This document shows positions 6,787 to 61,595 of a stretch of 64,000 nucleotides of DNA, in pieces; position 1 is the stretch's first letter, and the number at the start of each line of letters is the position of its first letter. The stretch spans positions 6,463 through 70,462 of the forward strand of contig CATXCY010000010.1 of assembly GCA_958366945.1 (NCBI GenBank), in the 5' to 3' direction. A model generated the notes under the pieces. The model made no database searches, had not been told where the DNA came from, and saw only the letters and a list, made by a program, of their open reading frames with translations. The stretch comes from an uncultured bacterium (lineage in GTDB: Bacteria; Vulcanimicrobiota; Xenobia; Xenobiales; Xenobiaceae). The position numbers and the translations under genes are program-made.

Positions 6787-6791
6787 ATATA

Positions 6792-39176: not shown

Positions 39177-40880
39177 CTATTGACTGATTAATTTGCGCAA
39201 ATCCCCGTATTGTCTGATCTTAAACCAAGTTAATTCTCCGTTAAGTAAGTAACGCCAGGCTACAGCTCCCATTTTTATGAAATTAGTTGCCCAAGCTAAA
39301 TAAAACGGAAATTGCCAATGACGTTTAAAAAAATCTCGTCGCTCTAGCAAGAAATTTATGAAACTTTTGGGTATGAACGATTTTGAAGCCAGACAGTATA
39401 TAGCTAAATAAAAGCGATCTTCTGGACTACGAGGCCAATCCATCGAAACACGGAACTGCTTCCAAGCTTTGTTGTTCATGCCTTCAACCTCATCGGGAGA
39501 AAGTTTGCCTTCAGCCAGTAATCTTTTGGTTATGGCTGTGCCTGGAAAATAGTTAAGTGAGTAAAAATAGACGTCGTAAGGGCGTTCTAGCTCTAACATA
39601 AACTTGGCTGTTTCTAATTTCATCTTTTCATCGGCCCAAGGGTTGTCGATAATTAGATCATAAACAGCTGATATGCCCAGTTGTTTGTTGAATTTGGAAA
39701 AGGCTAGTATATTATCGTTGCCCGGTATGCGGTTATGAACAGCCAAACTTTCCTGCGGTGAGCCGCTTTCGATGCCTGTTTGCATTCGGACCAAGCCGGC
39801 TTTTTTTAGCTTCTCCAGAAAAGGCTGACGTAACATAGGTGGTATAAGCATACATTCAAAGGGCAAACCTATACGCTGTGGATATTTTGAGCAGAATTCG
39901 TCTACCCATGAGGGAGGGGCTGCAAAAGCTGTATCATCATCTATTTTTACTCTAGCCAAACGGGGAAAATGCTTTTTTATATATTCAAGCTCGCCTAAAA
40001 TGTGCTCTACGGAGCGTAGACGATAAAATTTTTGTTTGTCGGCCGCAAATTTTTCGCGCAGAATAGATACATAACAGTAAGAACAATTATAAGGACAGCC
40101 CCGTGAACAATAAATTCTGTATTCAGCTGTTCTCTTCCAGGGCTCTTCATTGTGAATTTTTTTATCTTCTATATAAAACTTATTGAAATCGTCTACATCT
40201 GGATAAGGCAATTCGTCCAAGTTGGCAATTAGAGGGCGCATTTCGTTTTTGTAAATTTTGTCTCCCAACTTTGCCCAAATATTGGGAATATCGCCGGTAA
40301 AATTATTGCTGTATAGAGCCTCGCATAAGTCTATAAGTGGAGCTTCTCCTTCGCCCAGACAGAGATAATCGGCGCAATCTAAAGCTCCTTCGGGGACAGC
40401 AGTAACGTGAATACCGCCCCAACATACTGGTAAATCAGAAAAGCGTTTTTTTAGTGCTTTGGTAAGCTCTTTTACCATTGGCAACAAGCTAGAAATAAAG
40501 CCTATGCCTACAAGATTGGCTTGTTTGTCGGCTATAATTTTGAATACCAACTCTAGTTCTTGAGCTGAAGGCATTTCCAATTTGTTATTTACCCAATCGC
40601 GCAAGAAAATTAGATCCACCTGGAAACCGGCGCGGCGTAAAGCTGCTGATAAGTAGCGCAAACCGGAATTTTCAACGCTGTAAATAGCTATTAATATTAC
40701 ATTAAATTGTTTTGGCTCTCCGTACCAACCAGAGCGAGGTGCCCAGGGAGCATGAATTTGTTTCTGTGCCGATCCTAAAGCCGGATCGAAAAGAGCCTCT
40801 GCCGATCCTGGAGAAGCGCCGGGAGCAGTTAATTTTGATGAAAAATTGTCATAAGTAATAGTTTTATCTGAATTTAACAT
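39177..40880 (-). CDS. B12-binding-domain radical SAM protein
   Basis: N-terminal B12-binding Rossmann region (VILIAIYSVENSGLRYLSAALRRAGF), radical SAM motif CSRGCPYNCSYC. Overlaps the upstream gene by 7 nt. Confidence 0.8.
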   Translation of the reverse strand: MLNSDKTITYDNFSSKLTAPGASPGSAEALFDPALGSAQKQIHAPWAPRSGWYGEPKQFNVILIAIYSVENSGLRYLSAALRRAGFQVDLIFLRDWVNNKLEMPSAQELELVFKIIADKQANLVGIGFISSLLPMVKELTKALKKRFSDLPVCWGGIHVTAVPEGALDCADYLCLGEGEAPLIDLCEALYSNNFTGDIPNIWAKLGDKIYKNEMRPLIANLDELPYPDVDDFNKFYIEDKKIHNEEPWKRTAEYRIYCSRGCPYNCSYCYVSILREKFAADKQKFYRLRSVEHILGELEYIKKHFPRLARVKIDDDTAFAAPPSWVDEFCSKYPQRIGLPFECMLIPPMLRQPFLEKLKKAGLVRMQTGIESGSPQESLAVHNRIPGNDNILAFSKFNKQLGISAVYDLIIDNPWADEKMKLETAKFMLELERPYDVYFYSLNYFPGTAITKRLLAEGKLSPDEVEGMNNKAWKQFRVSMDWPRSPEDRFYLAIYCLASKSFIPKSFINFLLERRDFFKRHWQFPFYLAWATNFIKMGAVAWRYLLNGELTWFKIRQYGDLRKLISQ

Positions 40881-42049
40881 AGCGGACTTACCCTTTTTAT
40901 TTCGTTAGCTAGATCCGAGGGAGAAGGCAGAGGCTTAGCGGAAAAACGGCGGAAATTCATGCGCAGAGCGTTAAAAAAAGCGGAGGTATTATGCAAAGTT
41001 AAAGCTATCTCCCACCAACAAGGACGCAAGCAAGCTCGACAATTATGACGCAAATTTTTGAGATAATTTAAGTCGCGTTTTTGCTGGTACCAATTTACAA
41101 AATCGCTTTCATAGACTTTGGGCGCTTTACTGGAAGCGTCATTTTGAAAATGACACATAGAGTAAGTGCCGCTTGGGCTGATAGAAAAACTAAGGCCGCC
41201 AGTTTGGCAATCTGTTCCTGTGCCCCAATAATTGGTATTCGTCTGTTGCGCAGTAGTAGATTTTGTGCTGTCGGCAGCTTTTAAGAAATTGACCATAGCT
41301 TTTAAATAAGGCTCAGAATTAAAAATCGGTGATTGTGGTTGCCGTTTAGCTTGTAATATGTAGTTAAGCAATTTGTTGAGAGCGGCTTCATCTTTTTCAC
41401 TAAAGCGCATTGCTTCTGAATCAGCAGAACAAGCCAGAATTTCTCCTTGATAGCTGTGTCTTTCTAAGGGAACTAAAGATAAATAAAAATTATAGGCTTT
41501 GGCTATAGCTAGCATTTGCGGAATATCTTTTATATTGCGCGTTGAAACTACACAATTTAAGATGCCAGTTCCGCCACGTTTACGAATTATTTCCGCCCAA
41601 AATTTAATTCGCTCAATTATCTTTTCCCAAATTTCTGGCTTGTGGCATATTTCACTCTGAACTTGGGGATGAGGAGTATCTAAAGAAATTGAAATGTGAC
41701 GCAACCCAGCCTCGACTACTGCCATATGTAATTCCTCTGTGCCTGCTAGGGCGTTGGTCAAGACTCTAGTTTCAATTCCTCTGTCGATAAAAGCTTTGAC
41801 TATTTTAGGTAAGTCTGGGCGCAGAAAAGGTTCACCACCTCCCAGAGAAATGGCCATAGTGCCGAGGCGACGCAGATTATCGGCTGTGGATTCTATTTGC
41901 GCAATTGTAAGTTCTTCGTCTTGACGCCCTTTTTTCCATAATCCACACATGGCACAAGTGAGGTTGCAGCGGTGAGTCAAGCCAAAATGAACATATATAG
42001 GTGTGTTGCCGTTCCAAAAAGCTTTAACAAGCGACCAAGGGTTTTTCAC
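40874..42049 (-). CDS. Radical SAM protein with C-terminal SPASM-like Cys cluster
   Basis: THRCNLTCAMCG (CxxxCxxC), GGGEPFLRPDL, C-terminal CRACLRPCWWE. Confidence 0.75.
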   Translation of the reverse strand: MKNPWSLVKAFWNGNTPIYVHFGLTHRCNLTCAMCGLWKKGRQDEELTIAQIESTADNLRRLGTMAISLGGGEPFLRPDLPKIVKAFIDRGIETRVLTNALAGTEELHMAVVEAGLRHISISLDTPHPQVQSEICHKPEIWEKIIERIKFWAEIIRKRGGTGILNCVVSTRNIKDIPQMLAIAKAYNFYLSLVPLERHSYQGEILACSADSEAMRFSEKDEAALNKLLNYILQAKRQPQSPIFNSEPYLKAMVNFLKAADSTKSTTAQQTNTNYWGTGTDCQTGGLSFSISPSGTYSMCHFQNDASSKAPKVYESDFVNWYQQKRDLNYLKNLRHNCRACLRPCWWEIALTLHNTSAFFNALRMNFRRFSAKPLPSPSDLANEIKRVSPLC

Positions 42050-43503
42050 AATTTCAGGATCTCCCAGCCAGCTTTTAATTTGCGGGCCATATCATTAAAA
42101 TTTTTAAGCTCTAGCAACTTGCGGAACATTTGCTTAGGGCGCAAATAAAAGCGTTTGAAAGCTTTATCGCATAGAGAGCTGAGCTCTGAGGCTGTAAAAA
42201 ATTCTGTCCATACTTGAGGCTTAAAATCAGGATATGGATTGGCCAAAAAATTCTCCCAATGTTGCGGATCGAGAATGCCTCTAGCTACACCTTGATCATA
42301 AATCAAAGTGTTAGGATAAGGAGTTAAAATTCCAAATAGAGCGTAATCAGGATCGAGAGAAATGGCAAAATCTACAGTACGATTTATTTCATCTATAGAA
42401 CTGTCATGAGGACAGCCGATCATAAAGTAGCATACCGTAGTTAAACCTTCATCAGTAAGCATTTTGAAGGCCTGACGCACCTTATCTGTAGTCAGATTTT
42501 TATTTAAAGCCTTCATACCAGCATCTGTACCAGACTCAACTCCTATATGCACTCTGGTACAACCTGCCAAACGCATAGCTTTTACGGTTTCTGGAGTTAG
42601 GCAATTGGCGCGGGCTCGAATATTCCAATTTACTTTAATGGAGCGTTTATTTATTTCTTCACAAATAGCCAAAACGCGGTCTCGACGGACGTTAAAGGTA
42701 TCGTCTACTATATATATTTCATGTACACCTAAATTGGCGCAAACTTCCATTTCATCTACTACTGACTTGGCACTTCGCCAACGCCAGGTAGTACGTCCGG
42801 GAGTGTTGCAAAAAGAACATTTGTAAGGACAGCCACGGCTGGTTAAGAGAGAAGTTGCTATAGCTTCACTACCCAAAACGTAGCTATACTTGCGGTAGTC
42901 TAGTATCTCGCGTCGAGGAAAAGGTAGTTTATCCAAATCGTCTATGGGTGGTCGTGAACATGTTTGCACGATATTCCCTTGATTGTCTTTAAAAAATAAG
43001 CCTGCAATGTTGCGCAAGCTATTTTCTAAAGTTTGACAATCGTAACCGTGGCTGTCGCTCCAGGAGGCTAAGTGGGCTTGCACAACTTCTGTAAAAGCTT
43101 CTTCTCCTTCAAAGGGAATGCAACCATCCAAACATTGGTATTTCATGCACTGTTGGGGAAAATCAGAAACATGCGGGCCGCCCCACCAAACCTTTACCGT
43201 TTTACCCAAATCTTTTTTTACCGACTCAGATACTTGAATCATGTCAATTAGATCATGAGTATGACCGGTTAGGCCTACTATTTGTGGTTTATAGTCAATT
43301 ATAAGTTTGCGCAATTGCTCAAGGTGAAGATGATCGGCCAAACAATCGATAAGACGTGTTTCTACCTGAGTATACTTATGGAGATGGGCTTCTATATAAA
43401 GCAAGCCTAAAGGCGGAATAGTGTTGGTTTCCGCATTTACCGTAGTTGGCACTTCTGAGGATATACTGTTGTCACGTGGTGGATTTATTAAAAGGATTCT
43501 CAT
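42046..43503 (-). CDS. B12-binding-domain radical SAM protein
   Basis: MRILLINPP N-terminus, radical SAM motif TSRGCPYKCSFCNTP. Confidence 0.82.
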   Translation of the reverse strand: MRILLINPPRDNSISSEVPTTVNAETNTIPPLGLLYIEAHLHKYTQVETRLIDCLADHLHLEQLRKLIIDYKPQIVGLTGHTHDLIDMIQVSESVKKDLGKTVKVWWGGPHVSDFPQQCMKYQCLDGCIPFEGEEAFTEVVQAHLASWSDSHGYDCQTLENSLRNIAGLFFKDNQGNIVQTCSRPPIDDLDKLPFPRREILDYRKYSYVLGSEAIATSLLTSRGCPYKCSFCNTPGRTTWRWRSAKSVVDEMEVCANLGVHEIYIVDDTFNVRRDRVLAICEEINKRSIKVNWNIRARANCLTPETVKAMRLAGCTRVHIGVESGTDAGMKALNKNLTTDKVRQAFKMLTDEGLTTVCYFMIGCPHDSSIDEINRTVDFAISLDPDYALFGILTPYPNTLIYDQGVARGILDPQHWENFLANPYPDFKPQVWTEFFTASELSSLCDKAFKRFYLRPKQMFRKLLELKNFNDMARKLKAGWEILKL

Positions 43504-43567: not shown

Positions 43568-44596
43568 TTAGGAGCGCAGTTTGTTGCCCATTGCCATAAC
43601 CCATTGCAAAATAGTGCGATGATTGAGAGAAAAAAGTAGGTTGTACTCAGTAAAGCAAGTAGCCGAACAACTTTGGCAAGGCAATAGCTTTTGTCTGAGT
43701 TGCTTGGCTGCTTCAGCAAAACCTAATTCTATGGCATTGGGCCCCTGTTGATCACCTATAAGCAAAGAACAAGGATAAAGGCATCCATCTGCGTCTATAT
43801 TCAAATAGAACTGTCCGGCCCAACATTTTTTCCAAGCAGATCCACTGTCTGTAGAAGTGTTGTGACTGTAGTCTTTCCAATTGATAAGATGATCCAAACA
43901 CTGAATGGAATTACCTATCTTGCGCCCTTTAAGTTTAGCTTCTTTCAAATATTGTAAACATTCTCGATATTCTTCGTCAGAAGGGCGCAAGGGGTTGTTC
44001 ACTCCAAAATGATCGCTGTGATGCAATACTTGGAAAGTGGGAGTAAAACCATACTTTTCTGCTTCTTTTAAGATCCAGTCTACTTTGTAAATATTGTTAA
44101 TGGTTAAAACTGTAATAGTCCATAAAGCAACTGGACTTTGGGAGGCAATTTCTATGGCCGCCATCGCCTTTTCATAGGAGCCAGGCTCACGGTTGGCGTC
44201 ATGCGCTTCCTGAGGGCCGTCCAAAGATATGATTAAATGATCTAACTTTTCCAAGAGCTTAGTCTTTTGGGAAATGAGATATCCGTTAGTGTCTAGGGTT
44301 GTATATAAATTATTCTCTTTGGCACAACTGACGATTTCTTCAATATCAGGACGCAACAAAGGCTCGCCGCCCCAAATGCCCAAACGCTGAATACCGCAGG
44401 CTGCCATTTCTCGAATCAGTTTTCGCATTTGCTCTGTGCTCAATTCTGGCTGACGGCGGGCTGGAATTTTGCAATAGCGACAGTGCGACTGACAAGCATT
44501 ATTGGTGGCGATAGTGGCAAAAATCGGAGTTGGAGCACCGCTTAGGCGCCCTTTTAGGACGGCTGCTCCGGCTTTAGCCATGGTAATGAATTTCAT
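43568..44596 (-). CDS. Radical SAM protein with SPASM-like C-terminal Cys cluster
   Basis: NNACQSHCRYCK (CxxxCxxC), GGEPLLRPDI, C-terminal CQSCSATC and CLYPC. Confidence 0.75.
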   Translation of the reverse strand: MKFITMAKAGAAVLKGRLSGAPTPIFATIATNNACQSHCRYCKIPARRQPELSTEQMRKLIREMAACGIQRLGIWGGEPLLRPDIEEIVSCAKENNLYTTLDTNGYLISQKTKLLEKLDHLIISLDGPQEAHDANREPGSYEKAMAAIEIASQSPVALWTITVLTINNIYKVDWILKEAEKYGFTPTFQVLHHSDHFGVNNPLRPSDEEYRECLQYLKEAKLKGRKIGNSIQCLDHLINWKDYSHNTSTDSGSAWKKCWAGQFYLNIDADGCLYPCSLLIGDQQGPNAIELGFAEAAKQLRQKLLPCQSCSATCFTEYNLLFSLNHRTILQWVMAMGNKLRS

Positions 44597-44623: not shown

Positions 44624-46423
44624 CTAGTTTTTTTGAGAGTCAGTCGACTCGACTGCCTCTGCCGGAACATGCTCACTTACGACTGCTGAGTCGGAGCTGT
44701 TGCTCTTGCTTAAAGTTGTATTTTTGCGTAAAGCTAAAATGTTTTTGGCAACTGAAGAAGCAACTGGTCTGGCTGAAAGCGGTAGAGCCGCTGGTCGCGG
44801 AGGAGCAGTGTGTGTAGCAGCTGCTGTAGGCAACGGCGGAGCTACTGGTCGCGGAGGAGCAGCGTGTGTGGCAGCTGCTGTAGGCAACGGCGGAGTTACT
44901 GGTCGCGGAGGAGCAGCGTGGGTAGCAGCTGTTGTAGGCAACGGAGGAGCAGCTGTTCGCGAAGGAGCAGCGTGGGTAGTAGCAATAGGAGCAGCCAAGT
45001 CGGAATCAATATCGTAGGTGGCAGCTTCATCTATGACGGCGGCTCTGGCTTTGGTAAGGCTGTTATGTTTTGTCGGCTCATTTGTTTTTCTGTAGGTAAC
45101 AGAGTGGGGCTTTTCGTTTTTCACTTGGGGCAGAGCAAATTCTTTCTGCCCTCCGTAGTGAAGAATAGTGTCCAGCGAATAGCGGCACCCCTCAACTATG
45201 CGTTCTAAGTCGGCATCTTTAAGTCTAGGATAAATAGGTAAATGTAATTGCACACGGGCTAACAAGTTAGCGTTGGTCAACTTGCTAGTATAGCTAACAG
45301 AATCAGATAAAATGGAAATTTGCTGAATTGGTTTTAAATATCCTGGAGATGTATCGATGGCATGACTGGAAAGTTGTCTAGCTAATTTTTCATTTTCAAT
45401 ATGGCCGATTACAAATGAATTAAAGACCGATTCGCCATAGTCGGGATATTCAGGAATAATCAGTCCTGGTAAATCGGCTTGCTTAAAAAGCTTAATCAAT
45501 TTTTTGCCATTTTGCGTACGCAGCGCGTTCTGCTCTTCAGCCCAGTCTAGCAAGCGGCGTCCCAAAGCGGCTTGTGCTGGTGAGGGCTTAAAGCTTATAT
45601 CAGGAGCGTTAGTATTGACACTATCTTCAAACATGCTATGCAAGGCATCCTTGCCTAAAAAAGACCAACCGATGCTTAGCAAAATATAAGCGCTAGCTGT
45701 AAAACCTAAAGTTGTCGTACCTGCCCACATAGCTGCGGCTTTGAATATTTGGGGATAAATAGAAGAGCTGGGAGCTATATAGGAGTCTTCCATGCGCAAG
45801 GTTGCTATTTCAGCTAAATGCTGATCTTGGAAAACGGCCATACCGCCGCCCAAGGTGGTGAAATTTTTCGTCAAGGCAAACGAGAAAATAGCCGCATCAC
45901 CGAAAGAACCTGCTTTTTTGCCATTTATGGTTGCGCCAAAACCTTGGGCGCAGTCTTCAATTACAAATATGTTTTTGCTTCTAGCTATAGTAGCGAGCTC
46001 TTCTGCAGGAGCTGGACAGCCATACATATGGGTAATAATAATAGCGGAAACGCCTTCCCAATCTTCATCTTTGATAGTTTCGGGGCCCATTACCCAGCTG
46101 CCCTGACGAATATCTACTAAGTGTGGTTGGAGGCCGGCAGCAATGATGGTGGAAGGAATAGAGTGATGGGTCCAAGCTGGGATCATCACCTTAGAATGGG
46201 GCGCTAAGTTCAGACATTGTAAAATAAGGTACAGCGCACCTCTAGCCGAATTCATATAAATAGCTTTTTTGACGCCTATATGTTCGGCGAATTTATTTTC
46301 GAATTTTTCTACTTCGCTGTTTCTTGCCTGACTTATTTCGCTGATAAACCATTGAATGTCTGTAAAATTTAGGGCTAAGTCGAACCTAGGAATTGGCCAC
46401 CCGTTTTTCAAAAAATTTGACAT
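44624..46423 (-). CDS. DegT-like PLP aminotransferase fused to C-terminal proline-rich tandem-repeat and Ser-rich tail
   Basis: DCAQGFGA...GSFGDAAIFSFALTKN (PLP Lys). The C-terminus carries four AATHAAPPRPVxPPLPT repeats encoded by 51-bp tandem repeats. Confidence 0.65.
   Translation of the reverse strand: MSNFLKNGWPIPRFDLALNFTDIQWFISEISQARNSEVEKFENKFAEHIGVKKAIYMNSARGALYLILQCLNLAPHSKVMIPAWTHHSIPSTIIAAGLQPHLVDIRQGSWVMGPETIKDEDWEGVSAIIITHMYGCPAPAEELATIARSKNIFVIEDCAQGFGATINGKKAGSFGDAAIFSFALTKNFTTLGGGMAVFQDQHLAEIATLRMEDSYIAPSSSIYPQIFKAAAMWAGTTTLGFTASAYILLSIGWSFLGKDALHSMFEDSVNTNAPDISFKPSPAQAALGRRLLDWAEEQNALRTQNGKKLIKLFKQADLPGLIIPEYPDYGESVFNSFVIGHIENEKLARQLSSHAIDTSPGYLKPIQQISILSDSVSYTSKLTNANLLARVQLHLPIYPRLKDADLERIVEGCRYSLDTILHYGGQKEFALPQVKNEKPHSVTYRKTNEPTKHNSLTKARAAVIDEAATYDIDSDLAAPIATTHAAPSRTAAPPLPTTAATHAAPPRPVTPPLPTAAATHAAPPRPVAPPLPTAAATHTAPPRPAALPLSARPVASSVAKNILALRKNTTLSKSNSSDSAVVSEHVPAEAVESTDSQKN
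44781..44990. repeat. Coding tandem direct repeat, about 4 units of 51 bp
   Basis: gcagctgctgtaggcaacggcggag(c/t)tactggtcgcggaggagcagcgtg(t/g)gt(g/a) repeated head-to-tail on the + strand. It encodes the PxxP repeats of the minus-strand aminotransferase. Confidence 0.8.
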
Positions 46424-46607: not shown

Positions 46608-47996
46608 TCAATTAACTTCCTTCAATACGGACTCTTCTTGAGCGCTTAAATTATCGAGTTTTAGAAGATATTTGGCCGCTGTACTTAACGAATTCTCTAT
46701 TGAATGATCCAAGTTGTTATACCAGAATCTGCCTGTTCTCCCCAAAAGCTCTAAATTCTCAAATTCTGAGCATTCTTTTTCCAAAGAGTTGAGCTTATCG
46801 ATATAGTTTAAACTGTATATAGGATATGCATCCCTAATCTTTTCTAACTTTGTATCTAAAACTTTGAAACTTTCGTCTATAACTTTTACTTGCTTCAATT
46901 CTTTTAATAAGCGAGGAAGTTGCTTTTCCGGATCTTGCCATAAATCGTCTTGGTAGCGGCAAGTAATTTCCAGACAAAGGCCACCTTTGCGGGCAGGCAC
47001 GCAGTCTGAACTAAAATAAGCAGGGTTGGATAGGCGAGAAAATAGCAAATTTTTATCACCGAAATAACACCATTGAGAGCGTTGTAAAGGCTCTTTGTCT
47101 AGCATTACATTGCATATCAGCTGGGAACGATAATCTAGTTCTGTGGGAGTGAGTGACAACTTGGCTGCCAATTCGTTAATAGAAGCGCTCCAGGCAACTT
47201 GTTCACAGTCGAAAGTGGCTTGTGTTGTAACTACCTTCTCAATTCTTTGGTGTCCATTAACCGTAGGAGCGCAAATGAGTTCGGTTACATCACAATTAGT
47301 GATGATCTCTCCGCCCAGTTTTTCAATTTGTCTTTGGCAGCTTTCCCAAAAGGCACAGATTCCACCCTGTTTGGGATAAAGGAAATTGAGCTCGGCTTTT
47401 TTGGGAAGCAGCATGAGCTTAAAAATCTCAAACAGAGAAGCTGTGTTGACGTTGTCATCAATAGTCGCTCTCTCCAAGCCAATCTTGGCCCAATTCCTAT
47501 GAGTTTGTTCAGTTGAAATACCGACAAATTTTTCGGTGTAATCTTTGAAAAATGTTTCGTAAAGCGTTTTCCCGTAGCGGCAAAGTACATACTCCTTGAA
47601 AGATTGGCTAGGACGTTGGCTGCGTCCTGTTCTCAGGATCATGTCTAGACCAGCTTGAATGGCAATATGCAAAGGCAATTTAGCTATGGTCGCCAAGCGG
47701 AGAGGCCAATCATGATATTGTCCCATAAAGTAAACTTGGGAGAAACGTTGAATTTCCGTAAATCGATCTTGATGGATCTCTTTTAGAAAGCGATTTACTT
47801 TAGGATTTTGCGAGTAAAAACGATGTGGCCCTATATCAAAAGTCCACTCTCCGTAGTGAAAGCTGCGCGACAAGCCTCCCGCTTTTTTCTCGCGCTCCAA
47901 TACAGTTACAGGCAATCCTGCTTTACAGAGATAATAGGCCAAAGTCAGGCCGGCTGCCCCTCCGCCGACTATTACATAGCGCTTCACAGAAACCAC
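46608..47996 (-). CDS. FAD/NAD(P)-binding oxidoreductase (amine-oxidase / UDP-galactopyranose-mutase-like fold)
   Basis: N-terminal dinucleotide-binding motif YVIVGGGAAGLTLAYYL...VLEREKKAGG. Confidence 0.65.
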   Translation of the reverse strand: MVSVKRYVIVGGGAAGLTLAYYLCKAGLPVTVLEREKKAGGLSRSFHYGEWTFDIGPHRFYSQNPKVNRFLKEIHQDRFTEIQRFSQVYFMGQYHDWPLRLATIAKLPLHIAIQAGLDMILRTGRSQRPSQSFKEYVLCRYGKTLYETFFKDYTEKFVGISTEQTHRNWAKIGLERATIDDNVNTASLFEIFKLMLLPKKAELNFLYPKQGGICAFWESCQRQIEKLGGEIITNCDVTELICAPTVNGHQRIEKVVTTQATFDCEQVAWSASINELAAKLSLTPTELDYRSQLICNVMLDKEPLQRSQWCYFGDKNLLFSRLSNPAYFSSDCVPARKGGLCLEITCRYQDDLWQDPEKQLPRLLKELKQVKVIDESFKVLDTKLEKIRDAYPIYSLNYIDKLNSLEKECSEFENLELLGRTGRFWYNNLDHSIENSLSTAAKYLLKLDNLSAQEESVLKEVN

Positions 47997-48852: not shown

Positions 48853-49842
48853 ATGAGCGAATATCATGTTCCCGTTCTTCTACATGAAGTTCTGGATTTT
48901 CTGAAAATTGAGCGCGGCGGTATATATTTGGATGCGACTTTAGGAGGCGGCGGCCATACTTTGGCTATCTTACAAAAGTTGCGCGAGTGCGGTGGCGGTA
49001 GTTTATTTTCTATAGATCAAGATCCTGAGGCTATAGCCGAAGCTACGAAAGCTATAGATGCTAGTGGAGTTTTGCAAGGAGAAGCTGGCAAGAGAGTTTC
49101 TTTCAAGATTTTGCGTGGCAATTTCTCTAACATGAAGGAACTACTTGCCCAGGATGGAATTTTTAGAGTTAACGGTATTCTTATGGATTTGGGGGTATCT
49201 TCTCACCAACTCGATGCACCTTGGCGTGGCTTTTCCTTTAGATACGACGGAAACTTAGATATGAGGATGTCTGATTCTGAAGAAGTGGCCAGTGCTGCCG
49301 ATTTGGTCAATAGTGCGTCCTACGAAGACTTATATCGAATAATAAGCGATTATGGAGAAGAACGCTTCGCCGGGAGGATAGCTCGAGCTATCGTTGCTGA
49401 GCGAGAATTAAAGCCTATAGCTACTACCTTCGAGTTAGCCAACCTTATCTCTCATGTTGTCCCCGCTCCCAGAGCTTCCTCACACGGTAAAGGCAAAGCT
49501 ATACATCCGGCCACTCGAACTTTTCAAGCTTTGCGCATTGCGGTAAATGACGAACTGACTGTTTTAGAAGAAGGCGTACATGCTGCTATCGGGCTGCTTG
49601 ATGCGGGTGGGCGTATCGCTGTGATCAGCTATCACTCTTTAGAAGATCGTATTATCAAGACGGCTATAAAACAATGCTTGGGACACTGCACCTGTCCCCC
49701 TCTGGCTCCTATTTGTACTTGTGGAGCTAAGGCTACTCTCAAAGAAATCACAAAGCGCCCAGTGGCTCCAAGCGATGAAGAATTAAAATTAAATCCGCGC
49801 TCTCGTTCGGCTAAGTTGCGTGTAGCCGAGCGTTTGCAATGA
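48853..49842 (+). CDS. rsmH: 16S rRNA (cytosine1402-N4)-methyltransferase RsmH (MraW)
   Basis: YHVPVLLHEVLDFL, YLDATLGGGGH, DLGVSSHQLD. Confidence 0.92.
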   Translation: MSEYHVPVLLHEVLDFLKIERGGIYLDATLGGGGHTLAILQKLRECGGGSLFSIDQDPEAIAEATKAIDASGVLQGEAGKRVSFKILRGNFSNMKELLAQDGIFRVNGILMDLGVSSHQLDAPWRGFSFRYDGNLDMRMSDSEEVASAADLVNSASYEDLYRIISDYGEERFAGRIARAIVAERELKPIATTFELANLISHVVPAPRASSHGKGKAIHPATRTFQALRIAVNDELTVLEEGVHAAIGLLDAGGRIAVISYHSLEDRIIKTAIKQCLGHCTCPPLAPICTCGAKATLKEITKRPVAPSDEELKLNPRSRSAKLRVAERLQ

Positions 49843-49927
49843 AAGGTTGTCTCTACCTTTAGAGGTTGCCTTTTAGGTAAAAAAATTAGTTATTTTACGC
49901 AAGTTTTTCTGTGGTGGAGGAAAACAA

Positions 49928-50404
49928 ATGTCTCAGTTTAGTGTGCGTCCTGCTATCAGTGTAGGCAGGTTGCCTGAATGGACTAGACAAATTCGGAGGC
50001 GGGCAGTGCGTTCAACGGAGGGCTTGAGCACTATTTCGGCTCAGGCTAAGGCTGAAATTCCTAAGCTAGCTACCGTTCCTAAAGTATGGTGCTTTTGTGT
50101 TGCGGCCGTATTGCTATCGTTTTTATTCTTGGTTACTTTGCAATATGCCGGCATAGTGGAAGTGCAATACGAACTGAATAGAGCTCAGTGTAAGCTGTCC
50201 AGCCTAGAGAAACAAAAGGTTGAGGCCGACTTGCAAGTCGAACAGTTGTCTTCTTTGAAGAGAATCTCTGAGCAAGCTCTCAAATTAGGTATGGAATACC
50301 CCTCCGCCGACGGTGTGCAAGTAGTGCGCGTATCTGTTGCTGATAATGGCAAAGTAAACGTCGCTTACGTGCCTTCGACGAACTCTGCTGATTATAAGCC
50401 ATAA
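49928..50404 (+). CDS. ftsL: FtsL-like cell-division protein (single TM helix plus coiled coil)
   Basis: Position between rsmH and ftsI. TM helix VWCFCVAAVLLSFLFLVTL followed by a Leu-heptad-rich stretch. Confidence 0.5.
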   Translation: MSQFSVRPAISVGRLPEWTRQIRRRAVRSTEGLSTISAQAKAEIPKLATVPKVWCFCVAAVLLSFLFLVTLQYAGIVEVQYELNRAQCKLSSLEKQKVEADLQVEQLSSLKRISEQALKLGMEYPSADGVQVVRVSVADNGKVNVAYVPSTNSADYKP

Positions 50405-50486
50405 GCAAAGCGTAAAGCCTACGTTATTCTTTTGAAGCATATATAAAGTGTTTTCAGGTGGCGCTGCTTTAGAATTTAAGATTGAG

Positions 50487-50518
50487 ATCTGCGCAGGTTT
50501 CTGCGCGGATATTTTTTT
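50487..50518 (+). terminator. Rho-independent terminator inside the dcw cluster (ftsL-ftsI spacer)
   Basis: ATCTGCGCAGgtttCTGCGCGGATatTTTTTTg: 10-bp stem with one G-U pair, plus a T-run. Confidence 0.6.
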
Positions 50519-50672
50519 GTGGTATCCAAGGTTGAGGCAAAGAGCTTAAGGCAGTCGTTTGAACATAAAATTTTAGATTTATACCTCGTTCATCGGTAAA
50601 GTGTTATCTAAGTTCAAGGTGGTCTGGTTCTATCCATTCGAACCTTTGTTAATGGGCAAAAAAGTTTAAAGT

Positions 50673-52550
50673 ATGGACAAACTCTGGAAAGAAACCTTTA
50701 AACAAAGAGCTATATTGGTTTTTGTACTGCTGCTGGTGTTTCTGGGCATAGTTATGCTCAGGCAACTCTGGCTTCAGTGTTTTAATGACAGCTTTTATAA
50801 ATATGAAGCGCGAAAGAAGCAAAGCTATCTAAAACAAGTTGTGGGGGTCAAGCGTGGTCTTAGAGGTGATATTCTTGACCGCAATCATCAGGCCTTAGCT
50901 ACCAGCAGTGATCGTCGCTCTATCAATAGCCATCCCTATCAAATAAAAGATCCTGCCTTAGTTAGTACTTGGCTGGCTCCTATTTTGAAAATGGACCAGG
51001 GGAAGCTCTATTCCATTTTAAGTAGCGATGAAACTTTTGTTAATTTGAAGTACAAAGCGCCTGACGAGATGTGCGATGCTGTAAAAAAACTTTACAGAGA
51101 GAAGCAACCTGAAGACGATCCTGACGATGAGACCAAAAATCCTTTATATGGTATCGAAGTTGTCAGAGAAAATTCTGGCCATCGTTTTTATCCCAAAGGG
51201 CGTTTAGCTTCACATATTTTAGGTATTGTCAATCGTGACGAAGAAGGAGTAGAAGGAACAGAGCTTCTCTTCGATCGTGAGCTTGCTCCTCAAACTTATA
51301 ATTTAGATGAAGAGATGGACGTTGCCGGCAATACTATTCCCGGAGCTCCTTCAGCTGCAGCAAAAAAGAACAAAGAATTTGATGAAGCCTCTCTCAATGG
51401 CAGTAGTATCGTTCTTACCATAGACGAGCGTATTCAGTTTATAGTTGAAGAAGAACTGAGAAAAACAGTAGCGCAGTTTAATGCTTTTGGCGGATCTATA
51501 GTAGTTCTTGATGCAAAAAACGCCGATATTTTGGCTATGGCTACTTATCCTGACTTTGATCCGGCCACCTATTATAAGTTCCCCCAAGAGCGCTGGCGCA
51601 ATAGGGCCGTTTGCGATGTTTATGAGCCTGGATCTATTTTCAAAGTTTTATCTGCTGGTGTGGCTATTAACAATGGCTACAGAGCCAGTTCCCAGTTCTA
51701 TTGTCCTGGCCGTCTCTATATAGAGGGCGATGTCGTCAACAATGCCGATGATGGACTTTATTCTAAAGGATACGAGACCATTGCCGATATTGTAGCTTAC
51801 TCTTTTAACACCGGAACGGCGTCTTTCGCTTTAGAGTTGGGCAAGAAAAAAATGGGCGAAGGTCTGGATAAATTTGGCATTGGCCACGTTACTGGTACAG
51901 AGGTTTTGGGCGAATCTTGCGGTCTTTTCGATAACTGGGAAGACTGGGGACGCTTTAGATTGGCCAATATTTCCTTTGGACAGGGAGTAGCCATTACACC
52001 TTTGCAATTGGCTTCTGCTGTACAAGCTATTGCTAATGACGGTGTGCGTATGAAACCCCATCTAGTAAAAGAAATTCTTACTCCGGATGGCAAAGTTGTA
52101 CACGAGTACATACGCAAAGAAGCCGATGAAGACAGGAATGGAGCTTACAAGGAAGTTATTCATTCGCTTAAGCCGGAAGTTTTGAGCAAGCCCATGACTA
52201 AGAGTGGGGCCCGGGAAATGCGTGAAGTTATGGCTGGAGTAATTAGCCATGGTACCGGTTCCAGGGCTAGAGTGCCCGGCTATAAAGTTGGAGGCAAAAC
52301 TGGTACTGCTCAGGTTGCTGGTGAGCACGGCTATATGGAAGGACAATATATAGCTGGTTTTGTGGGCATAGCTCCTATAGACAATCCTGAAGTGGTAGTT
52401 GTTGTGAAGATTGAAAGGCCCGGGCCTATATATTACGGTGGTTTGGTGGCTGCTCCGGTTTTCAATAAAGTTTGCACCAAGATTTTGCCTGTGTTGGGAG
52501 TACCTCCAACTCCGGGCTATAAACAACTGAATCCGGAAACGGGTTTATAA
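50673..52550 (+). CDS. ftsI: Peptidoglycan D,D-transpeptidase FtsI (class B PBP)
   Basis: SIFK (SxxK), SFN (SxN), KTGT motifs. N-terminal TM anchor. Confidence 0.9.
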   Translation: MDKLWKETFKQRAILVFVLLLVFLGIVMLRQLWLQCFNDSFYKYEARKKQSYLKQVVGVKRGLRGDILDRNHQALATSSDRRSINSHPYQIKDPALVSTWLAPILKMDQGKLYSILSSDETFVNLKYKAPDEMCDAVKKLYREKQPEDDPDDETKNPLYGIEVVRENSGHRFYPKGRLASHILGIVNRDEEGVEGTELLFDRELAPQTYNLDEEMDVAGNTIPGAPSAAAKKNKEFDEASLNGSSIVLTIDERIQFIVEEELRKTVAQFNAFGGSIVVLDAKNADILAMATYPDFDPATYYKFPQERWRNRAVCDVYEPGSIFKVLSAGVAINNGYRASSQFYCPGRLYIEGDVVNNADDGLYSKGYETIADIVAYSFNTGTASFALELGKKKMGEGLDKFGIGHVTGTEVLGESCGLFDNWEDWGRFRLANISFGQGVAITPLQLASAVQAIANDGVRMKPHLVKEILTPDGKVVHEYIRKEADEDRNGAYKEVIHSLKPEVLSKPMTKSGAREMREVMAGVISHGTGSRARVPGYKVGGKTGTAQVAGEHGYMEGQYIAGFVGIAPIDNPEVVVVVKIERPGPIYYGGLVAAPVFNKVCTKILPVLGVPPTPGYKQLNPETGL

Positions 52551-52590
52551 AAGGTACGTTGAGTAAAGTGAGGAGAACTCGAAAAAAGTT

Positions 52591-54192
52591 ATGGCAAGCA
52601 TAGCTGAGTTAAGTCAACTGCTGAAACATGCTGAAATTATAGGCGATCCTTGTGTGGAAGTTAGCGGCTTGAGTTGCGATTCCCGACAAGTAAAGCCAGG
52701 AGATCTTTTTGTTTGCGTTACTGGCTTCCAAAGTGATGGCCATGCTTTCGCCGCTGACGCTGTGGCCAAAGGGGCTAAAGCTTTGGTTGTAGAGCATATC
52801 CCTGAAAGCGTAGCCAATTCTGGGATCACATTCATAAAGACGAATAAGGCTCGTCGGGCTCTGGCCATCTTGGCGGCTCACTTTTTTGGCAATCCGGCTC
52901 AAAAATTGCTTAATATCGGTATTACCGGCACGAACGGCAAAACTACTACTTCCTACTTGGTAGAAGCTGTGCTGAAAGCTGCTGGTTACGATCCAGGCAT
53001 GTTAGGTACCATTGAAGCTCATGTGGCCGGAGAAGTGCAAAAACTTTCCAATACTACTCCTGGTTCTTTCGACTTACATAAAATGTTTGCTCAAATGGTA
53101 GAAGCCGGGCAAGACAGTGTCGTTATGGAAGTATCTTCTCACGCCATAGCTTTGGATCGCGTCTATGGTATACCTTATGACATTGCTGTCTTTACCAACT
53201 TAACTCAGGATCACTTAGATTTCCATGGTACTATGGAAAACTATTTCCAAGCCAAGGCGAAACTCTTCACTCGTCTGGGCGTTTATGGCGAAAGAGCTGT
53301 GGGGCCTTTTGCCGTGATTAATTTGGATGATCCTTACAGTGAACGTCTTATCGGCCTTATCAAAGATAGAGTTCCAGTTATCACTTACGGAACTAGCCAC
53401 AAAGCCGATGTACGTGCTTTCAATGTGGTTGCTGGCCCCAGCGGCTTGAGCTTTACGCTTGAGACTAGAGTTGGTGAGCGTGACGTTAACTTGCAACTAT
53501 CCGGTTTATTCAATTTGCACAATGCCTTGGCAGCTGTGGCTGTGGGCATGGCTTTGCGTATTGGCTTGGATTGTGTCGTTAAGGCGCTTGAATCAGTAGC
53601 TGCAGTTCCCGGACGCTTCCAATTGGTGCGTATGGGACAAAGTTTTACAGTTATTGTCGATTATGCCCACACTCCCGATGGCTTAGAGCATTTGCTTGAT
53701 TCGGCTCGTCTAATTACGACTGGACGCCTTTGTTTGGTCTTCGGATGTGGAGGCGATCGTGATAAGGGAAAACGTCCTATTATGGGACGCTTGGCTGTAG
53801 AAAAAGCGGACAAAGTTTATATTACTACAGATAATCCGCGCAGCGAAGCTCCTGAGAGTATTGTCAAGCAAATCTTGTCTGGCATTTCTACCGCTAATAT
53901 GGAGCACGTTGAAATTATTTACGATAGGGCTGAAGCTATAGAAAAAGCGATAAGCAATGCCAAGCCTGGTGACACTGTCGTTATTGCTGGCAAAGGGCAT
54001 GAGACTTATCAAAAATTCGGTGATCACACTACCCATTTCGATGATGTTGAGCAGGCGAAGAAGGCTTTAAGCAAATCTGCTCTTCAGTCTGGAGCTTTAG
54101 ATACTTTGGCTGCTAGCCGTATCCGCATGCACACTGCCTGGAATCGTCGAGCTTTGGATCATAGTCGTTACGTTATCGGCAGCGCTCTTTAA
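52591..54192 (+). CDS. murE: UDP-N-acetylmuramoyl-L-alanyl-D-glutamate--2,6-diaminopimelate ligase MurE
   Basis: GITGTNGKTTTSYL P-loop, and the DNPRSE motif typical of mDAP-adding MurE. Confidence 0.92.
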   Translation: MASIAELSQLLKHAEIIGDPCVEVSGLSCDSRQVKPGDLFVCVTGFQSDGHAFAADAVAKGAKALVVEHIPESVANSGITFIKTNKARRALAILAAHFFGNPAQKLLNIGITGTNGKTTTSYLVEAVLKAAGYDPGMLGTIEAHVAGEVQKLSNTTPGSFDLHKMFAQMVEAGQDSVVMEVSSHAIALDRVYGIPYDIAVFTNLTQDHLDFHGTMENYFQAKAKLFTRLGVYGERAVGPFAVINLDDPYSERLIGLIKDRVPVITYGTSHKADVRAFNVVAGPSGLSFTLETRVGERDVNLQLSGLFNLHNALAAVAVGMALRIGLDCVVKALESVAAVPGRFQLVRMGQSFTVIVDYAHTPDGLEHLLDSARLITTGRLCLVFGCGGDRDKGKRPIMGRLAVEKADKVYITTDNPRSEAPESIVKQILSGISTANMEHVEIIYDRAEAIEKAISNAKPGDTVVIAGKGHETYQKFGDHTTHFDDVEQAKKALSKSALQSGALDTLAASRIRMHTAWNRRALDHSRYVIGSAL

Positions 54193-54301
54193 TTTTACCT
54201 ATTTTCGGCAGTCCTCTCACCTTGAATTGCTTTTGTATTCTTGATGAGGGGACTTTGTTGTACAGTTATCTTTTTAGAAACGGAACTTATCAATCTGAAT
54301 T

Positions 54302-55792
54302 ATGGACAAAATTTGGCAAGCTGATGCTGTGGCTCGGGTACTCAACACCGAATTTCCCAAAAATATAGCCAACGATTATTGTTTTACTGGAATTTTTACC
54401 GACAGCAGACATCCTGTGGCGGGAGGGTTGTTTGTTCCTTTGTGCGGAGAGCGTTTCAATGCTCACAAATTTGTGCAATCTGCTTTGCAAGGAGGCGCGG
54501 CCGCGTCTCTTTGGTCGAGGCGTGAAGCTGGAGAAATTGAAGTACCTGAAGCCTATCGAGATCGCCTAATTTACGTAGACTCTGGTTTGCAAGCTTATCT
54601 GTTGCTTAGTGGCTACTATATGCACTTCTGTGGAGTTAAAGTTTTAGGTATAACTGGTTCTGTAGGCAAAACTACTACTAAAGATTTCGCTAAGGCCATT
54701 TTGGGGCAAAAATATTGTGTGGGAGCTACGCTCGCCAATCACAACAATGAGGTAGGTTTTGCCGAAACTTTGCTTTCTTTAAGCCGAGAGAGCGAATGGG
54801 CTGTTGTAGAAATGGGCATGAGAGCTCGCGGAGAGATAGAGCGTTTGGCTAAAATTGCCCAGCCCCAAGTCAGTATTATTACTACCATCGGTGAATCTCA
54901 TTTAGAACGTTTGGGTACTCGTCGGGAAATTGCCTTAGCTAAAGCCGAGTTATTGGACTATAGCTCTAAAGATGGTGTGGCTATTTTGCCTGCCGATTCC
55001 GATTTTTATGAACTTTTGTGCGAACATGCTCTAGGAAAGCGTGTTTCTTTTGCTGTTAGCAGCGCTGAGGCCGATTGGCATTTGTTGGCAACTGAAGAAA
55101 AAATTCTTTTGGGAGAACACTCTAAAGATTCTGCTATGCGGCGCTTAATCTGTGGGCAAATGGTGCGTTTTGTCTGCCCTGAAGGGGAAAAAGAACTTTT
55201 CTTACCTGCGCCGGGACGCCATAATTGTGTCAATATGTTGGCTGCTTTGGCTGCTGGCTATGAAGTGGGTATTTCGGTAGAGGAGGCGGCTCAAGGATTA
55301 GCTTCTTGCAAACTTACTGGCAAGCGTTTGGAAATGGAAATAGCTCCAGATGGCACAGTTTTAATTGACGATTCTTATAATGCTGCTCCCAGTTCTGTGA
55401 AAGCTGCTTTGGAGCTATTAGCCAAATTGCCGGAGCTATCGGTAGATAAAGGCCAGATCGCTAATTGCCAAACTAAGAAAAGACAGCGCATAGCCATTTT
55501 GGGAGATATGCTTGAATTGGGTGGCAATGAGCGACAAATGCACGAGGAATTAGGAACTGTCTGTGCCGATTGCTGTGTGGATCTTTTAATAGGTGTGGGC
55601 GAATTGAGCCGTTATACGGTACGCAATGCTCAAGAGCATGGCTTGAAGACCGTTTGGGCCGCCGATTTTGAGCAAGCGTTGGAAAAGCTAAATGCTCTGC
55701 GTCAGCCTGGCGATTATCTGTTAGTAAAAGCCTCTCATTCGATCAATCTTTCCGCTTTAGCTCAAAAGATTAGAGCAAATTATGTTGTATAA
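54302..55792 (+). CDS. murF: UDP-N-acetylmuramoyl-tripeptide--D-alanyl-D-alanine ligase MurF
   Basis: GITGSVGKTTTKDF. Mur ligase domain order. Confidence 0.9.
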   Translation: MDKIWQADAVARVLNTEFPKNIANDYCFTGIFTDSRHPVAGGLFVPLCGERFNAHKFVQSALQGGAAASLWSRREAGEIEVPEAYRDRLIYVDSGLQAYLLLSGYYMHFCGVKVLGITGSVGKTTTKDFAKAILGQKYCVGATLANHNNEVGFAETLLSLSRESEWAVVEMGMRARGEIERLAKIAQPQVSIITTIGESHLERLGTRREIALAKAELLDYSSKDGVAILPADSDFYELLCEHALGKRVSFAVSSAEADWHLLATEEKILLGEHSKDSAMRRLICGQMVRFVCPEGEKELFLPAPGRHNCVNMLAALAAGYEVGISVEEAAQGLASCKLTGKRLEMEIAPDGTVLIDDSYNAAPSSVKAALELLAKLPELSVDKGQIANCQTKKRQRIAILGDMLELGGNERQMHEELGTVCADCCVDLLIGVGELSRYTVRNAQEHGLKTVWAADFEQALEKLNALRQPGDYLLVKASHSINLSALAQKIRANYVV

Positions 55793-55835
55793 TGGGCGAT
55801 ATTTTTGATTATAAAATTAAAGAAAGAGGCGCTTT

Positions 55836-56810
55836 ATGTGTAGTTTGCCTTGGCTGCATTCTGTTGGATTGGCTATTCTGACTGGTTTGGGATTAGCTTT
55901 GGTAAGTATGCCCATCTTTTTGCGATGGGCTAAAGGTCATGGTTGGGGACAGGAGGTTCGAGAAGAAGGGCCTAAAGCTCACCTTTCCAAGGCTGGCACT
56001 CCTACTATGGGAGGAATTGTACTGATTTTAGCTGGCTTAATCGCCAGTTTTTGGGCTCCCAATAGCCTAGACTTGTGGATATTCCGCTTTACAGTAGTAG
56101 TTTGTGCTGGTGTGGGCATGGTCGACGACTTAAGCAAACTTATGAAACATCGCAGCTTAGGCCTAAAAGCGCGTCATAAGATGGCTGTGCTATTGGTACT
56201 GGGTCTGATCCTTTTCGCTTATTTGGCTCTTACTCGCCAAAATTTTGGTGTAAATATTCCATTAGTTGGCTTTGTTGGCAGCACTTGGGTTGTGCTGGCC
56301 GTTACCCTTTTACTCACTAGCGGTACCGTCAATGCTGTAAATTTAACTGACGGCTTAGACGGCTTGGCTGGAGGTACATGCACGGCCGCTTTGTTGGCGT
56401 ACTCAGCTATCGCCGCTCACACTGGTCATACCGAGTTGTGCATTGCTTCTGCGGCCATGGCTGGAGCTTGTGTAGGTTTCCTTTGGTATAATGTTTTCCC
56501 GGCTAGAGTTTTTATGGGAGATACCGGATCTCTGGCTTTGGGAGGAGCTTTAGCATCCTTGGCCCTTTTGACCGGAACAGAATTTTTACTTGTTTTGGTG
56601 GGCGGAATTTTTGTTATAGAAGCCCTTTCCGTAATCATTCAAGTTTCTTACTTTAAGTTAACTAATGGTAAGCGCATCTTTAAGATGAGCCCTATTCACC
56701 ATCACTTTGAACTGAGTGGTTTACATGAAGTTCAGGTAACGGCTCGCTTTACGATTATTTCCGTAATTTTAGCTTTGTTAGGCGTTCTTTATTGCTTGGG
56801 AGGTCTATAA
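55836..56810 (+). CDS. mraY: Phospho-N-acetylmuramoyl-pentapeptide-transferase MraY
   Basis: GTPTMGG, DDxxK, polytopic membrane protein. Confidence 0.92.
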   Translation: MCSLPWLHSVGLAILTGLGLALVSMPIFLRWAKGHGWGQEVREEGPKAHLSKAGTPTMGGIVLILAGLIASFWAPNSLDLWIFRFTVVVCAGVGMVDDLSKLMKHRSLGLKARHKMAVLLVLGLILFAYLALTRQNFGVNIPLVGFVGSTWVVLAVTLLLTSGTVNAVNLTDGLDGLAGGTCTAALLAYSAIAAHTGHTELCIASAAMAGACVGFLWYNVFPARVFMGDTGSLALGGALASLALLTGTEFLLVLVGGIFVIEALSVIIQVSYFKLTNGKRIFKMSPIHHHFELSGLHEVQVTARFTIISVILALLGVLYCLGGL

Positions 56811-58246: not shown

Positions 58247-58281
58247 GATGCCCGATGAAAAAGGCCGGAGGTCGCATATAA

Positions 58282-59778: not shown

Positions 59779-60120
59779 GTTCTTGGTAACAATGCTCTAT
59801 AAGGAGCCGCCTGATCGGATTACTCTAAGTAAAGGTGTCTCGATTTGGCGGCTGCTTATTTGCAATTACAATTAGCACTACAATGACTCATCTTGGTATA
59901 CAGCATCAGCTTTTCTCTTGTTGAGGTATCAGGCAAACTCAAAATAATTTTAACTAAATGCCTAATTATAAAACAGACTTATGCTTAAGAGCCAATTTGT
60001 TCTGCTTAAATGTTGTAAAATGGACCCGCTTAGCCAGGAAGTCGCACTTATTTTGACCAATAGTAAGCGGCAAGTTTTTCCAGGGGTGCAGTCGTTTTGC
60101 CAGAAGATAATCAGAGCCAG

Positions 60121-61488: not shown

Positions 61489-61595
61489 GAGCGTCCGCTG
61501 GGGCAAGCAACTTGTCTTCTTAAATTGCTTGCCTACGTTTTGTTCCGGCCTTCAGTCCAATTACCTAGTAACCGTTTACTGAAGGTTGCAAAATT

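Follow-up and report, generated by a model that had tools for sequence, protein, structure and literature searches.

A DegT-like protein of the Xenobia with a copy-number-variable proline-rich tail that persists after loss of the catalytic lysine

Protein tails in which a disordered linker of variable length and biased composition leads to a far more conserved short peptide are known from the C-terminal linker and peptide of FtsZ and from the tail of SSB. Proline-rich tandem units that are encoded in frame, vary in copy number among strains and act as an extended spacer or multivalent ligand are known from the repeats of Listeria ActA and the proline-rich spacer of TonB, and an enzyme fold kept under selection although its catalytic residues are dispensable is known from KidO and GdhZ of Caulobacter, UgtP of B. 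subtilis and OpgH of E. coli, all of which act on FtsZ. We report here on a gene that invites comparison with these systems, found in a 64,000-nucleotide stretch of DNA from an uncultured bacterium of the Xenobiaceae (assembly GCA_958366945.1, contig CATXCY010000010.1, positions 6,463 to 70,462), hereafter the window. The gene is an open reading frame (ORF) at 44624..46423 on the minus strand of the window, and it encodes a DegT-like protein of 599 residues, identical to database protein P0121, with a long C-terminal tail. We document the repeat within this tail and its variation in copy number, the selection on the repeat core and on a terminal motif, the predicted disorder of the tail, and a link between loss of the catalytic lysine and loss of a neighbouring cassette of radical S-adenosylmethionine (SAM) genes. 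The reading that we favour, at somewhat better than even confidence, is that the tail forms a multivalent docking or tethering module for a role independent of catalysis.

Like the tails of FtsZ and SSB, the extension runs through a variable, biased and disordered linker to a much better conserved short peptide, and the likeness to FtsZ extends to a position beside the division and cell wall (dcw) gene cluster; however, there is no sequence similarity to FtsZ, and the linker here has a repeated conserved motif of its own. ActA and TonB are surface, periplasmic or host-directed proteins, whereas the present array, with its motif RPxAPPLP and a putative role as spacer or ligand, is borne by a cytoplasmic enzyme fold that has no signal peptide. 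The likeness to KidO, GdhZ, UgtP and OpgH would include cell-division genes, here through genomic association alone. Microcompartment encapsulation peptides and encapsulin cargo-loading peptides also present a short terminal helix on a flexible linker rich in Pro, Ala and Ser, but they are common to several cargo proteins and occur with shell genes, whereas the motif here, RPVASSVAKNILALRK, is found in one family among 1.84 billion representatives; no microcompartment or encapsulin shell family was found among the subset of window ORFs scanned. Linkers with docking peptides, polymorphic proline-rich repeats and pseudoenzymes are thus established concepts, and what is notable at this locus is a natural series from enzyme to pseudoenzyme together with orphan motifs.

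The body of the protein (aa 1-440, 45104..46423, minus strand) has a pyridoxal phosphate-dependent aminotransferase fold, as supported by structure prediction, structural matches and the ratio of nonsynonymous to synonymous substitution (dN/dS). The Pfam family DegT_DnrJ_EryC1 (PF01041) covers the N-terminal ~440 residues in two stretches (E=1.5e-58, 199 bits against a cut-off of 19.8). An AlphaFold 2 (AF2) model has a predicted local distance difference test score (pLDDT) above 90 over residues 10-425, and the fold resembles GDP-perosamine synthase, WecE, ArnB and DesV at a target-normalised Foldseek TM score of ~0.83 (matches 3bn1, 4piw, 4oca and 2oga, E ~1e-27, target TM 0.81-0.85). Solved aminotransferases of the DegT/DnrJ/EryC1/StrS type share with the window protein the fold, the Pfam family, the EDxAQ motif and the Schiff-base lysine; both of the latter are intact in the window, as E156-D157-C-A-Q160 and as K186 of the S-F-x-x-x-K motif (codon at 45866..45868, minus strand, in FSFALTKNFTTLGGG). 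These enzymes are, however, only ~20-26% identical to the window protein, which has in addition a hydrophobic helical insert of ~45 residues and a disordered tail of ~150 residues; it also differs in that close relatives have no such lysine and in that the gene belongs to a cassette with four radical SAM genes and a flavin adenine dinucleotide (FAD) oxidoreductase gene. The protein scores far below every cut-off of the NCBIfam equivalogs PseC, LegC, WecE, ArnB and DesI, so no specific orthology can be assigned.

The insert (aa 219-262, 45638..45769, minus strand) consists of three hydrophobic helices that interrupt the DegT fold and split the DegT match, with helices modelled by AF2 over residues 219-256. 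It is common to the whole subfamily, tail-less members included (conserved in A1), and may act as a lid or as a surface that faces membrane or lipid. We rejected a transmembrane reading, as the Kyte-Doolittle maximum is only 1.42 and the modelled helices pack confidently.

A repeat array and an orphan motif in the tail

The tail is predicted to be intrinsically disordered over ~150 residues: residues 448-599 have pLDDT <50, and the sole helix modelled there is five residues long and lies inside RPVASSVAKNILALRK. It begins with a poorly conserved linker (aa 441-488, 44960..45103, minus strand; pLDDT <50 from residue 448) that has an acidic TYDIDSD patch. The tandem array follows (44791..44983; period 54 bp, 3.6 copies, 90% matches, no indels and a score of 302 by Tandem Repeats Finder) and on the minus strand encodes residues 489-550 as four eight-residue cores set among T(A/T)AATH(A/T)APP spacers, namely a degenerate RTAAPPLP (aa 489-496, 44936..44959), RPVTPPLP (aa 507-514, 44882..44905), RPVAPPLP (aa 525-532, 44828..44851) and a terminal variant RPAALPLS (aa 543-550, 44774..44797). 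The last unit ends in PLS in all relatives with the AKNILALRK motif. The repeat segment is 31% Pro and 28% Ala, and the local G+C content is 60% as compared to ~42% nearby. Between the array and a Ser-rich, acidic and variable end (aa 568-599 with the stop codon, 44624..44722, minus strand) lies RPVASSVAKNILALRK (aa 552-567, 44723..44770, minus strand), which forms a short, basic and weakly amphipathic helix (AF2 helix 560-564).

The original prediction, made earlier from the letters of this stretch, had placed at 44781-44990 three and a half 51-bp repeats that encode, on the minus strand, a 19-residue unit on a DegT-like aminotransferase. The array is indeed there, its coding strand lies inside the ORF just described and the fold was rightly named, but the period is 54 bp, and the 19-letter unit counted one T twice, the real unit being 18 residues long. 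The Ser-rich tail after the array likewise exists, although the conserved RPVASSVAKNILALRK in between had been overlooked, and where the whole unit had been taken as the repeat element the selected part is the eight-residue core RPxAPPLP. Two plus-strand ORFs over the array (44700-45017, 105 aa; 44810-45208, 132 aa) were considered and rejected: they are mirror images rich in Gly, Ala, Cys, Arg and Ser, the conserved frame in all homologues is that of the minus strand, and it is almost certain that neither is a gene. PPLP-type and AKNIL motifs are absent from all other ORFs in the window.

We found the array in frame in ~80 distinct homologous sequences from many independent assemblies, with two to seven units in each. 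In the species of the window, among members of one 90% cluster, protein lengths are 563, 581, 599, 617, 635 and 653 residues, that is exact steps of 18, and every change in copy number is a multiple of the unit. A second species has members of 581, 599 and 617 residues, with two longer ones (636 and 641) off the 18-residue series, and a third, sister species (L013) spans 545-630 residues in steps of 17, because its unit is 51 bp. Within the window species, proteins with two to seven units differ at no more than nine positions across the first 485, non-repeat residues and are at least 98% identical outside the array, so copy number changes much faster than point substitutions accumulate. Units are near-identical within one genome and unlike between species (TAAATHAAPP, SAAAAHTAPP, TAATPPTTT, SAAAAPIAQP), a pattern characteristic of concerted evolution through slippage or unequal exchange. 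Tail length across the tailed lineages ranges from ~140 to ~290 residues. The array does not behave as a phase-variable contingency repeat, since its units are 54 or 51 bp and the length variants stay in frame. One exceptional allele (P0148, seen again in L020) has a short out-of-frame stretch within the array (AHTAPLSSLREQPNRNRCPAPPLSARPV), with the frame restored before the conserved motif; this could be a real double slippage or a shared assembly error.

These data also bear on whether the repeat, or its copy number, was made by short-read assembly. A run of N lies inside the array of L004 (a UBA4705 metagenome-assembled genome (MAG), 10001-11900), where it gives a false truncated ORF of 533 residues, and the metagenome contigs L020 and L021 end inside the array, so that individual copy numbers are provisional. 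We nevertheless give almost no credence to an artefact, as the array is in frame with species-specific unit variants in the ~80 distinct sequences from many samples, and several length classes each recur on 6-13 contigs. The worry in the original prediction that the repeats might be an assembly product thus falls for the array as such, if not for single copy numbers. Its expectations of copy-number variation (borne out by the 18- and 17-residue steps) and of a tail atypical for DegT enzymes (confined, as described below, to the Xenobia lineage) both held.

Every species down to 65% identity has the core RP[VAT]APPLP, while the spacers diverge, and the P0013 lineage, whose identity is 50-61% according to the measure used, has it in the form RPAAPPAP. 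Core codons differ synonymously between species (CGA/CGC/CGT; CCA/CCG/CCT/CCC; TTG/TTA/CTC/CTG), which indicates that the core is preserved as protein and is not merely a DNA copy. Values of dN/dS are 0.16-0.23 in the linker, 0.06-0.25 in the C-terminal part and 0.02-0.06 in the enzyme fold. Could the extension be a functionless product of slippage that is merely tolerated? Its low complexity, predicted disorder, variable copy number and great divergence between deeper lineages would fit such a neutral appendage, but the reading frame is preserved throughout, synonymous codon changes leave the core intact, conservation of the terminal motif matches that of the active site, dN/dS in the tail is 0.06-0.25, and each Xenobia lineage examined retains a tail, even where neighbouring genes have been deleted. 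We therefore regard a neutral origin and fate as quite improbable. Among more distant tails, that of P0013 repeats ARPAAPPAP ~6 times and that of P0017 repeats G(A/M/L)PP(R/Q/H)PG ~12 times; an NPNLQL motif is common to P0014, P0016 and P0017.

Fourteen of the 16 columns of RPVASSVAKNILALRK are invariant in eight proteins, two from Ca. Bruticola included, down to 65% identity; for comparison, 15 of 16 columns are invariant in the best-conserved active-site segment and 21% in the tail as a whole. That the polar residues S, S, K and N never vary speaks for specific recognition and bears on a second alternative, in which the peptide would be an amphipathic membrane helix of the MinD or FtsA type and the proline array a mere spacer to give the enzyme reach. 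The motif is indeed basic (R552, K560, R566 and K567, with K574 just downstream) and has a hydrophobic face (hydrophobic moment of ~0.5 for an 11-mer), the fold has its hydrophobic insert, and the cassette includes relatives of HpnJ-like and lipid-type radical SAM enzymes. On the other hand, the mean hydrophobicity is ~0, with hydrophobic residues that are mostly small (V, A); membrane helices of this kind are strongly amphipathic, with bulky hydrophobic residues, usually lie at the extreme terminus and usually conserve character and not sequence, as opposed to the invariant polar residues here; the motif is not terminal, 32 acidic Ser-rich residues lying beyond it; and selection on the RPxAPPLP core would be needless in a pure spacer. 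A membrane tether thus appears unlikely to us, though it is the alternative that we take most seriously.

The tail matches no Pfam family at E values up to 10, and a profile of the motif run against all PDB sequences gave only a chance match of 12 bits. An exhaustive hmmsearch of 1.84 billion representatives with a 40-column motif profile recovered only this family (P0003 and the fragment P0158), and a back-translated pattern scan of the JGI metagenomes gave five loci, all of them the same tailed gene; the motif-alignment profile scores ~82 bits on family members. Tail-only homology searches, with the motif alignment or with the repeat sequence, returned no scored matches and missed the family itself, and are uninformative. 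RPVASSVAKNILALRK is therefore an orphan motif and not a module common to several proteins.

These searches also speak to mimicry of eukaryotic ligands, in which PPLP-type repeats, a WH2-like helix and LRK would engage SH3, WW, profilin or actin of the host. Such mimicry has precedents in ActA, VopL/VopF and TARP, the organism is a gut symbiont, and there is a superficial likeness to their layout of proline-rich repeats, short helix and L-R-K-N-T-T. Pfam and PDB profile searches rule out membership of the WH2 family, however, with no match to WH2 (PF02205) or any other family at E up to 10 and none to a PDB chain, WH2-actin complexes included. Compared by eye with the consensus LLxxIxxGxxLKKV, the LRK in VAKNILALRKNTT lies ~3 residues nearer the helix core. 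The protein lacks a signal peptide, and its gene, next to the dcw cluster, shares an operon with those of cytoplasmic radical SAM enzymes. A host-directed role for the tail is accordingly extremely improbable.

Loss of the catalytic lysine and of the radical SAM genes

In the window the tailed gene is the second of a six-gene minus-strand cassette. It is preceded by a gene for an FAD oxidoreductase of the PRK07208 or amine-oxidase type (46608..47996) and followed after 27 bp, with no terminator-like site between, by a radical SAM gene (43568..44596), a gene for a B12-binding radical SAM enzyme of the HpnJ/BchE-like type (42046..43503), a SPASM-type radical SAM gene (40874..42049) and a second B12-binding radical SAM gene (39177..40880). 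The resemblance of the radical SAM genes to HpnJ, BchE and lipid-type enzymes falls far short of the family cut-offs in every case.

K186 is invariant in every tail-less relative matched by motif search and is replaced in several tailed lineages: by S in P0007 (L004, L014) and P0015 (L016), by Q in the P0009 cluster (L013), by N in P0141 (L015) and in P0017 (L009, with L010 likewise N), and by D in P0021. We compared the lysine with the cassette at eight tailed and three tail-less loci that have it and at six that do not, the P0021 locus being left out. Lys186 occurs together with the radical SAM genes in the window, in L001-L003, L005-L008 and L018, and in the tail-less L011, L012 and L017; Lys186 and all four radical SAM genes are both absent from L004/L014, L013, L015, L009/L010 and L016, with zero exceptions. 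In the loci without the cassette other than L016, which still has the FAD gene, the genes that flank the tailed gene on both sides are gone, the FAD gene included, while the tailed gene itself is spared. The similarity of flanking genes interleaves lineages that lack the lysine with lineages that have it, and P0141, without the lysine, falls in the same 90% cluster as the Lys-bearing P0003. This argues that the losses were independent, and the sequence comparison puts their number at four to five.

Selection on the fold stayed strongly purifying after these losses, as pairs of Lys-less proteins have enzyme-fold dN/dS values of 0.035-0.059. Counted as changes at columns that are invariant among Lys-bearing proteins, erosion is graded: one change in P0141 (K186N only), two in P0007, four in P0009 (A60G and A159T among them), seven in P0015 and 22 in P0017 (R61P, T85I, H86D and Y134G among them), and the eroded columns include positions of active-site motifs. 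P0031, as compared with P0017, has lost ~80 internal residues, the EDxxQ motif among them, and has kept the long proline-rich tail, which is consistent with further decay of the catalytic core in the oldest Lys-less lineage. The tail is present in all Lys-less lineages. On the sequences, this is the pattern that would be expected if catalysis had been abandoned and another function of the protein maintained.

The same comparison bears on a third alternative, in which the tail serves the radical SAM enzymes, either as a substrate resembling a ribosomally synthesized and post-translationally modified peptide (RiPP) or as a docking arm, the remnant of a linker that fuses DegT and radical SAM enzymes and keeps the pair together. 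SPASM-type enzymes often modify peptides, and the tail emerges exactly at the junction where, in other phyla, the DegT-like protein is fused to a radical SAM enzyme (P0023, P0026). The phyletic pattern, however, largely refutes both versions: the same cassette occurs in tail-less relatives (L011, L012, L017), tails with intact motifs persist without any radical SAM gene (L009, L013-L016), and the co-occurrence of precursor and maturase that a RiPP would show is thus not seen. We consider this alternative very improbable; like host mimicry and assembly artefact, it is contradicted by the tests run.

Taxonomic spread and gene neighbourhood

The closest loci come from human-gut (Hadza) MAGs, a MAG labelled 'Riflebacteria', UBP9 UBA4705 and Ca. 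Bruticola, which belongs to the class Ca. Xenobia of the Vulcanimicrobiota (Eremiobacterota). The tail is limited to the Xenobia lineage and is present in every Xenobia lineage examined. At 46% identity and below, relatives have 400-450 residues or continue directly into the downstream radical SAM enzyme as a fusion. In other bacteria the same cassette occurs with a tail-less DegT (~425 aa) or a DegT-radical SAM fusion (757 aa), away from any dcw cluster. The fusion, represented by P0023 and P0026 (L011, L012) in another phylum, joins the DegT-like protein to a partner that is encoded here by a separate downstream radical SAM gene, and in L017 the DegT and radical SAM genes overlap by 4 bp; together these arrangements argue that the DegT-like and radical SAM enzymes work together physically.

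The tailed gene adjoins the dcw cluster in every tailed lineage examined. In the window this cluster is divergent from the cassette (48853..63047, plus strand) and comprises rsmH, ftsL, ftsI, murE, murF, mraY, murD, ftsW, murG and murC. No ORF of the size of mraZ lies between the FAD oxidoreductase gene and rsmH (47997-48852), and mraZ heads the dcw cluster in the more distant L009, L016 and L018. A sigma-70-like site (46507-46536, minus strand; TAGACA, an 18-nt spacer and GATAAT, 10 of 12 consensus matches) falls within the 184 intergenic bp that precede the tailed gene, so by sequence the tailed gene could have a promoter of its own inside the cassette.

Downstream of the cassette the window encodes zf_Tbcl, Sua5, DUF2760, an Hsp70-like protein, a canonical DegT and a heparinase II/III-like protein. 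Where enough flanking sequence was available in the Xenobia lineages, the block of zf_Tbcl, Sua5/TsaC, DUF2760 and Hsp70-like genes (34769-38689 in the window, minus strand) is syntenic with the tailed gene in L002-L009, L013, L014 and L018; the canonical DegT and heparinase II/III-like genes usually close it, and not all six genes are found at each locus. Of the neighbours, the Hsp70-like protein is the best conserved (up to 97%); it has 604 residues, of which only the nucleotide-binding part matches HSP70, with weak matches to MreB_Mbl. Elsewhere in the window are genes like those of type IV pili or type II secretion systems (4319-8917, plus strand; PilX_N, T2SSF) along with several family-less ORFs, a gene for a Fic-domain protein (12578-13846, minus strand), and two ORFs without a Pfam family (19921-20898 and 24865-28485). 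Literature searches for the cassette, the tail, the motif or the biology of the Xenobia found nothing relevant.

A proposed docking role for the tail and what it would mean

The extension that we regard as a docking module comprises a variable linker, two to seven copies of RP[VAT]APPLP and, directly after the last copy, the invariant basic RPVASSVAKNILALRK. The core copies would be held 17-18 residues apart by Ala/Thr/Pro-rich spacers that are probably polyproline-II-like, and the proline motifs and the terminal peptide would serve as binding sites for one or several proteins, by which the DegT-fold body would be localised or scaffolded. Slipped-strand mispairing or unequal recombination between the near-identical in-frame units would alter the number of motifs, and with it the reach and valency of the tail, and would also homogenise the units within a species. 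We infer that the partner is a protein rather than the membrane, because the motif does not vary at its polar residues, its helix presents small residues on the hydrophobic face and the proline core is under selection. The docking role would be independent of transamination, because the tailed protein is still under strong purifying selection in lineages without the radical SAM genes and the lysine; its survival beyond the loss of its catalytic lysine and partner genes suggests that the tail does more than tether an active enzyme, and that it probably carries the second function. The tether to a partner or to the envelope that the original prediction put forward is compatible with this evidence but unproven.

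Several points weigh against a docking module. RPVASSVAKNILALRK, without a detectable relative anywhere, offers no functional precedent. The distant tailed proteins P0014-P0017 are without AKNILALRK and have proline-rich sequence that is only loosely similar, which means that the module varies across the clade or that its interface with the partner changes rapidly in evolution. The connection between the tail and a catalysis-independent function is circumstantial, and the conserved fold could itself carry that function with the tail as an accessory. Adjacency to the dcw cluster may be inherited synteny, functionally meaningless, and the copy numbers derive from short-read assemblies that sometimes break in the array.

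A link to cell division is suggested by the neighbourhood, and this leads us to speculate, tentatively and as a version that we consider rather unlikely, that a metabolic enzyme is here on its way to being a pseudoenzyme with a scaffolding or regulatory part in cell division or in the biogenesis of the envelope. It would act through the RPxAPPLP array and the AKNILALRK peptide as an FtsZ-like tail whose copy number tunes reach and valency, and it would be essential enough to survive deletion of its pathway and decay of its active site. If true, this would account for the fixed position of the tailed gene beside the dcw cluster.

The transition from enzyme to pseudoenzyme is seldom laid out as a natural series in closely related gut bacteria. 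Three states can be seen here: the pathway and the lysine both present, both just lost (a single K186N) and long after the loss (22 changes), with fold and tail under purifying selection in all three. The family thereby offers a concrete and testable case of a metabolic enzyme that gains a second job independent of catalysis. It also flags an uncharacterised six-gene cassette in several phyla, made up of an FAD oxidoreductase, a DegT-like protein and four radical SAM enzymes, and the fast-varying array could serve as a strain marker for human-gut Xenobia. What emerges is a candidate docking peptide, new and orphan, together with a new proline motif, in a phylum-level lineage without a cultured gut representative.

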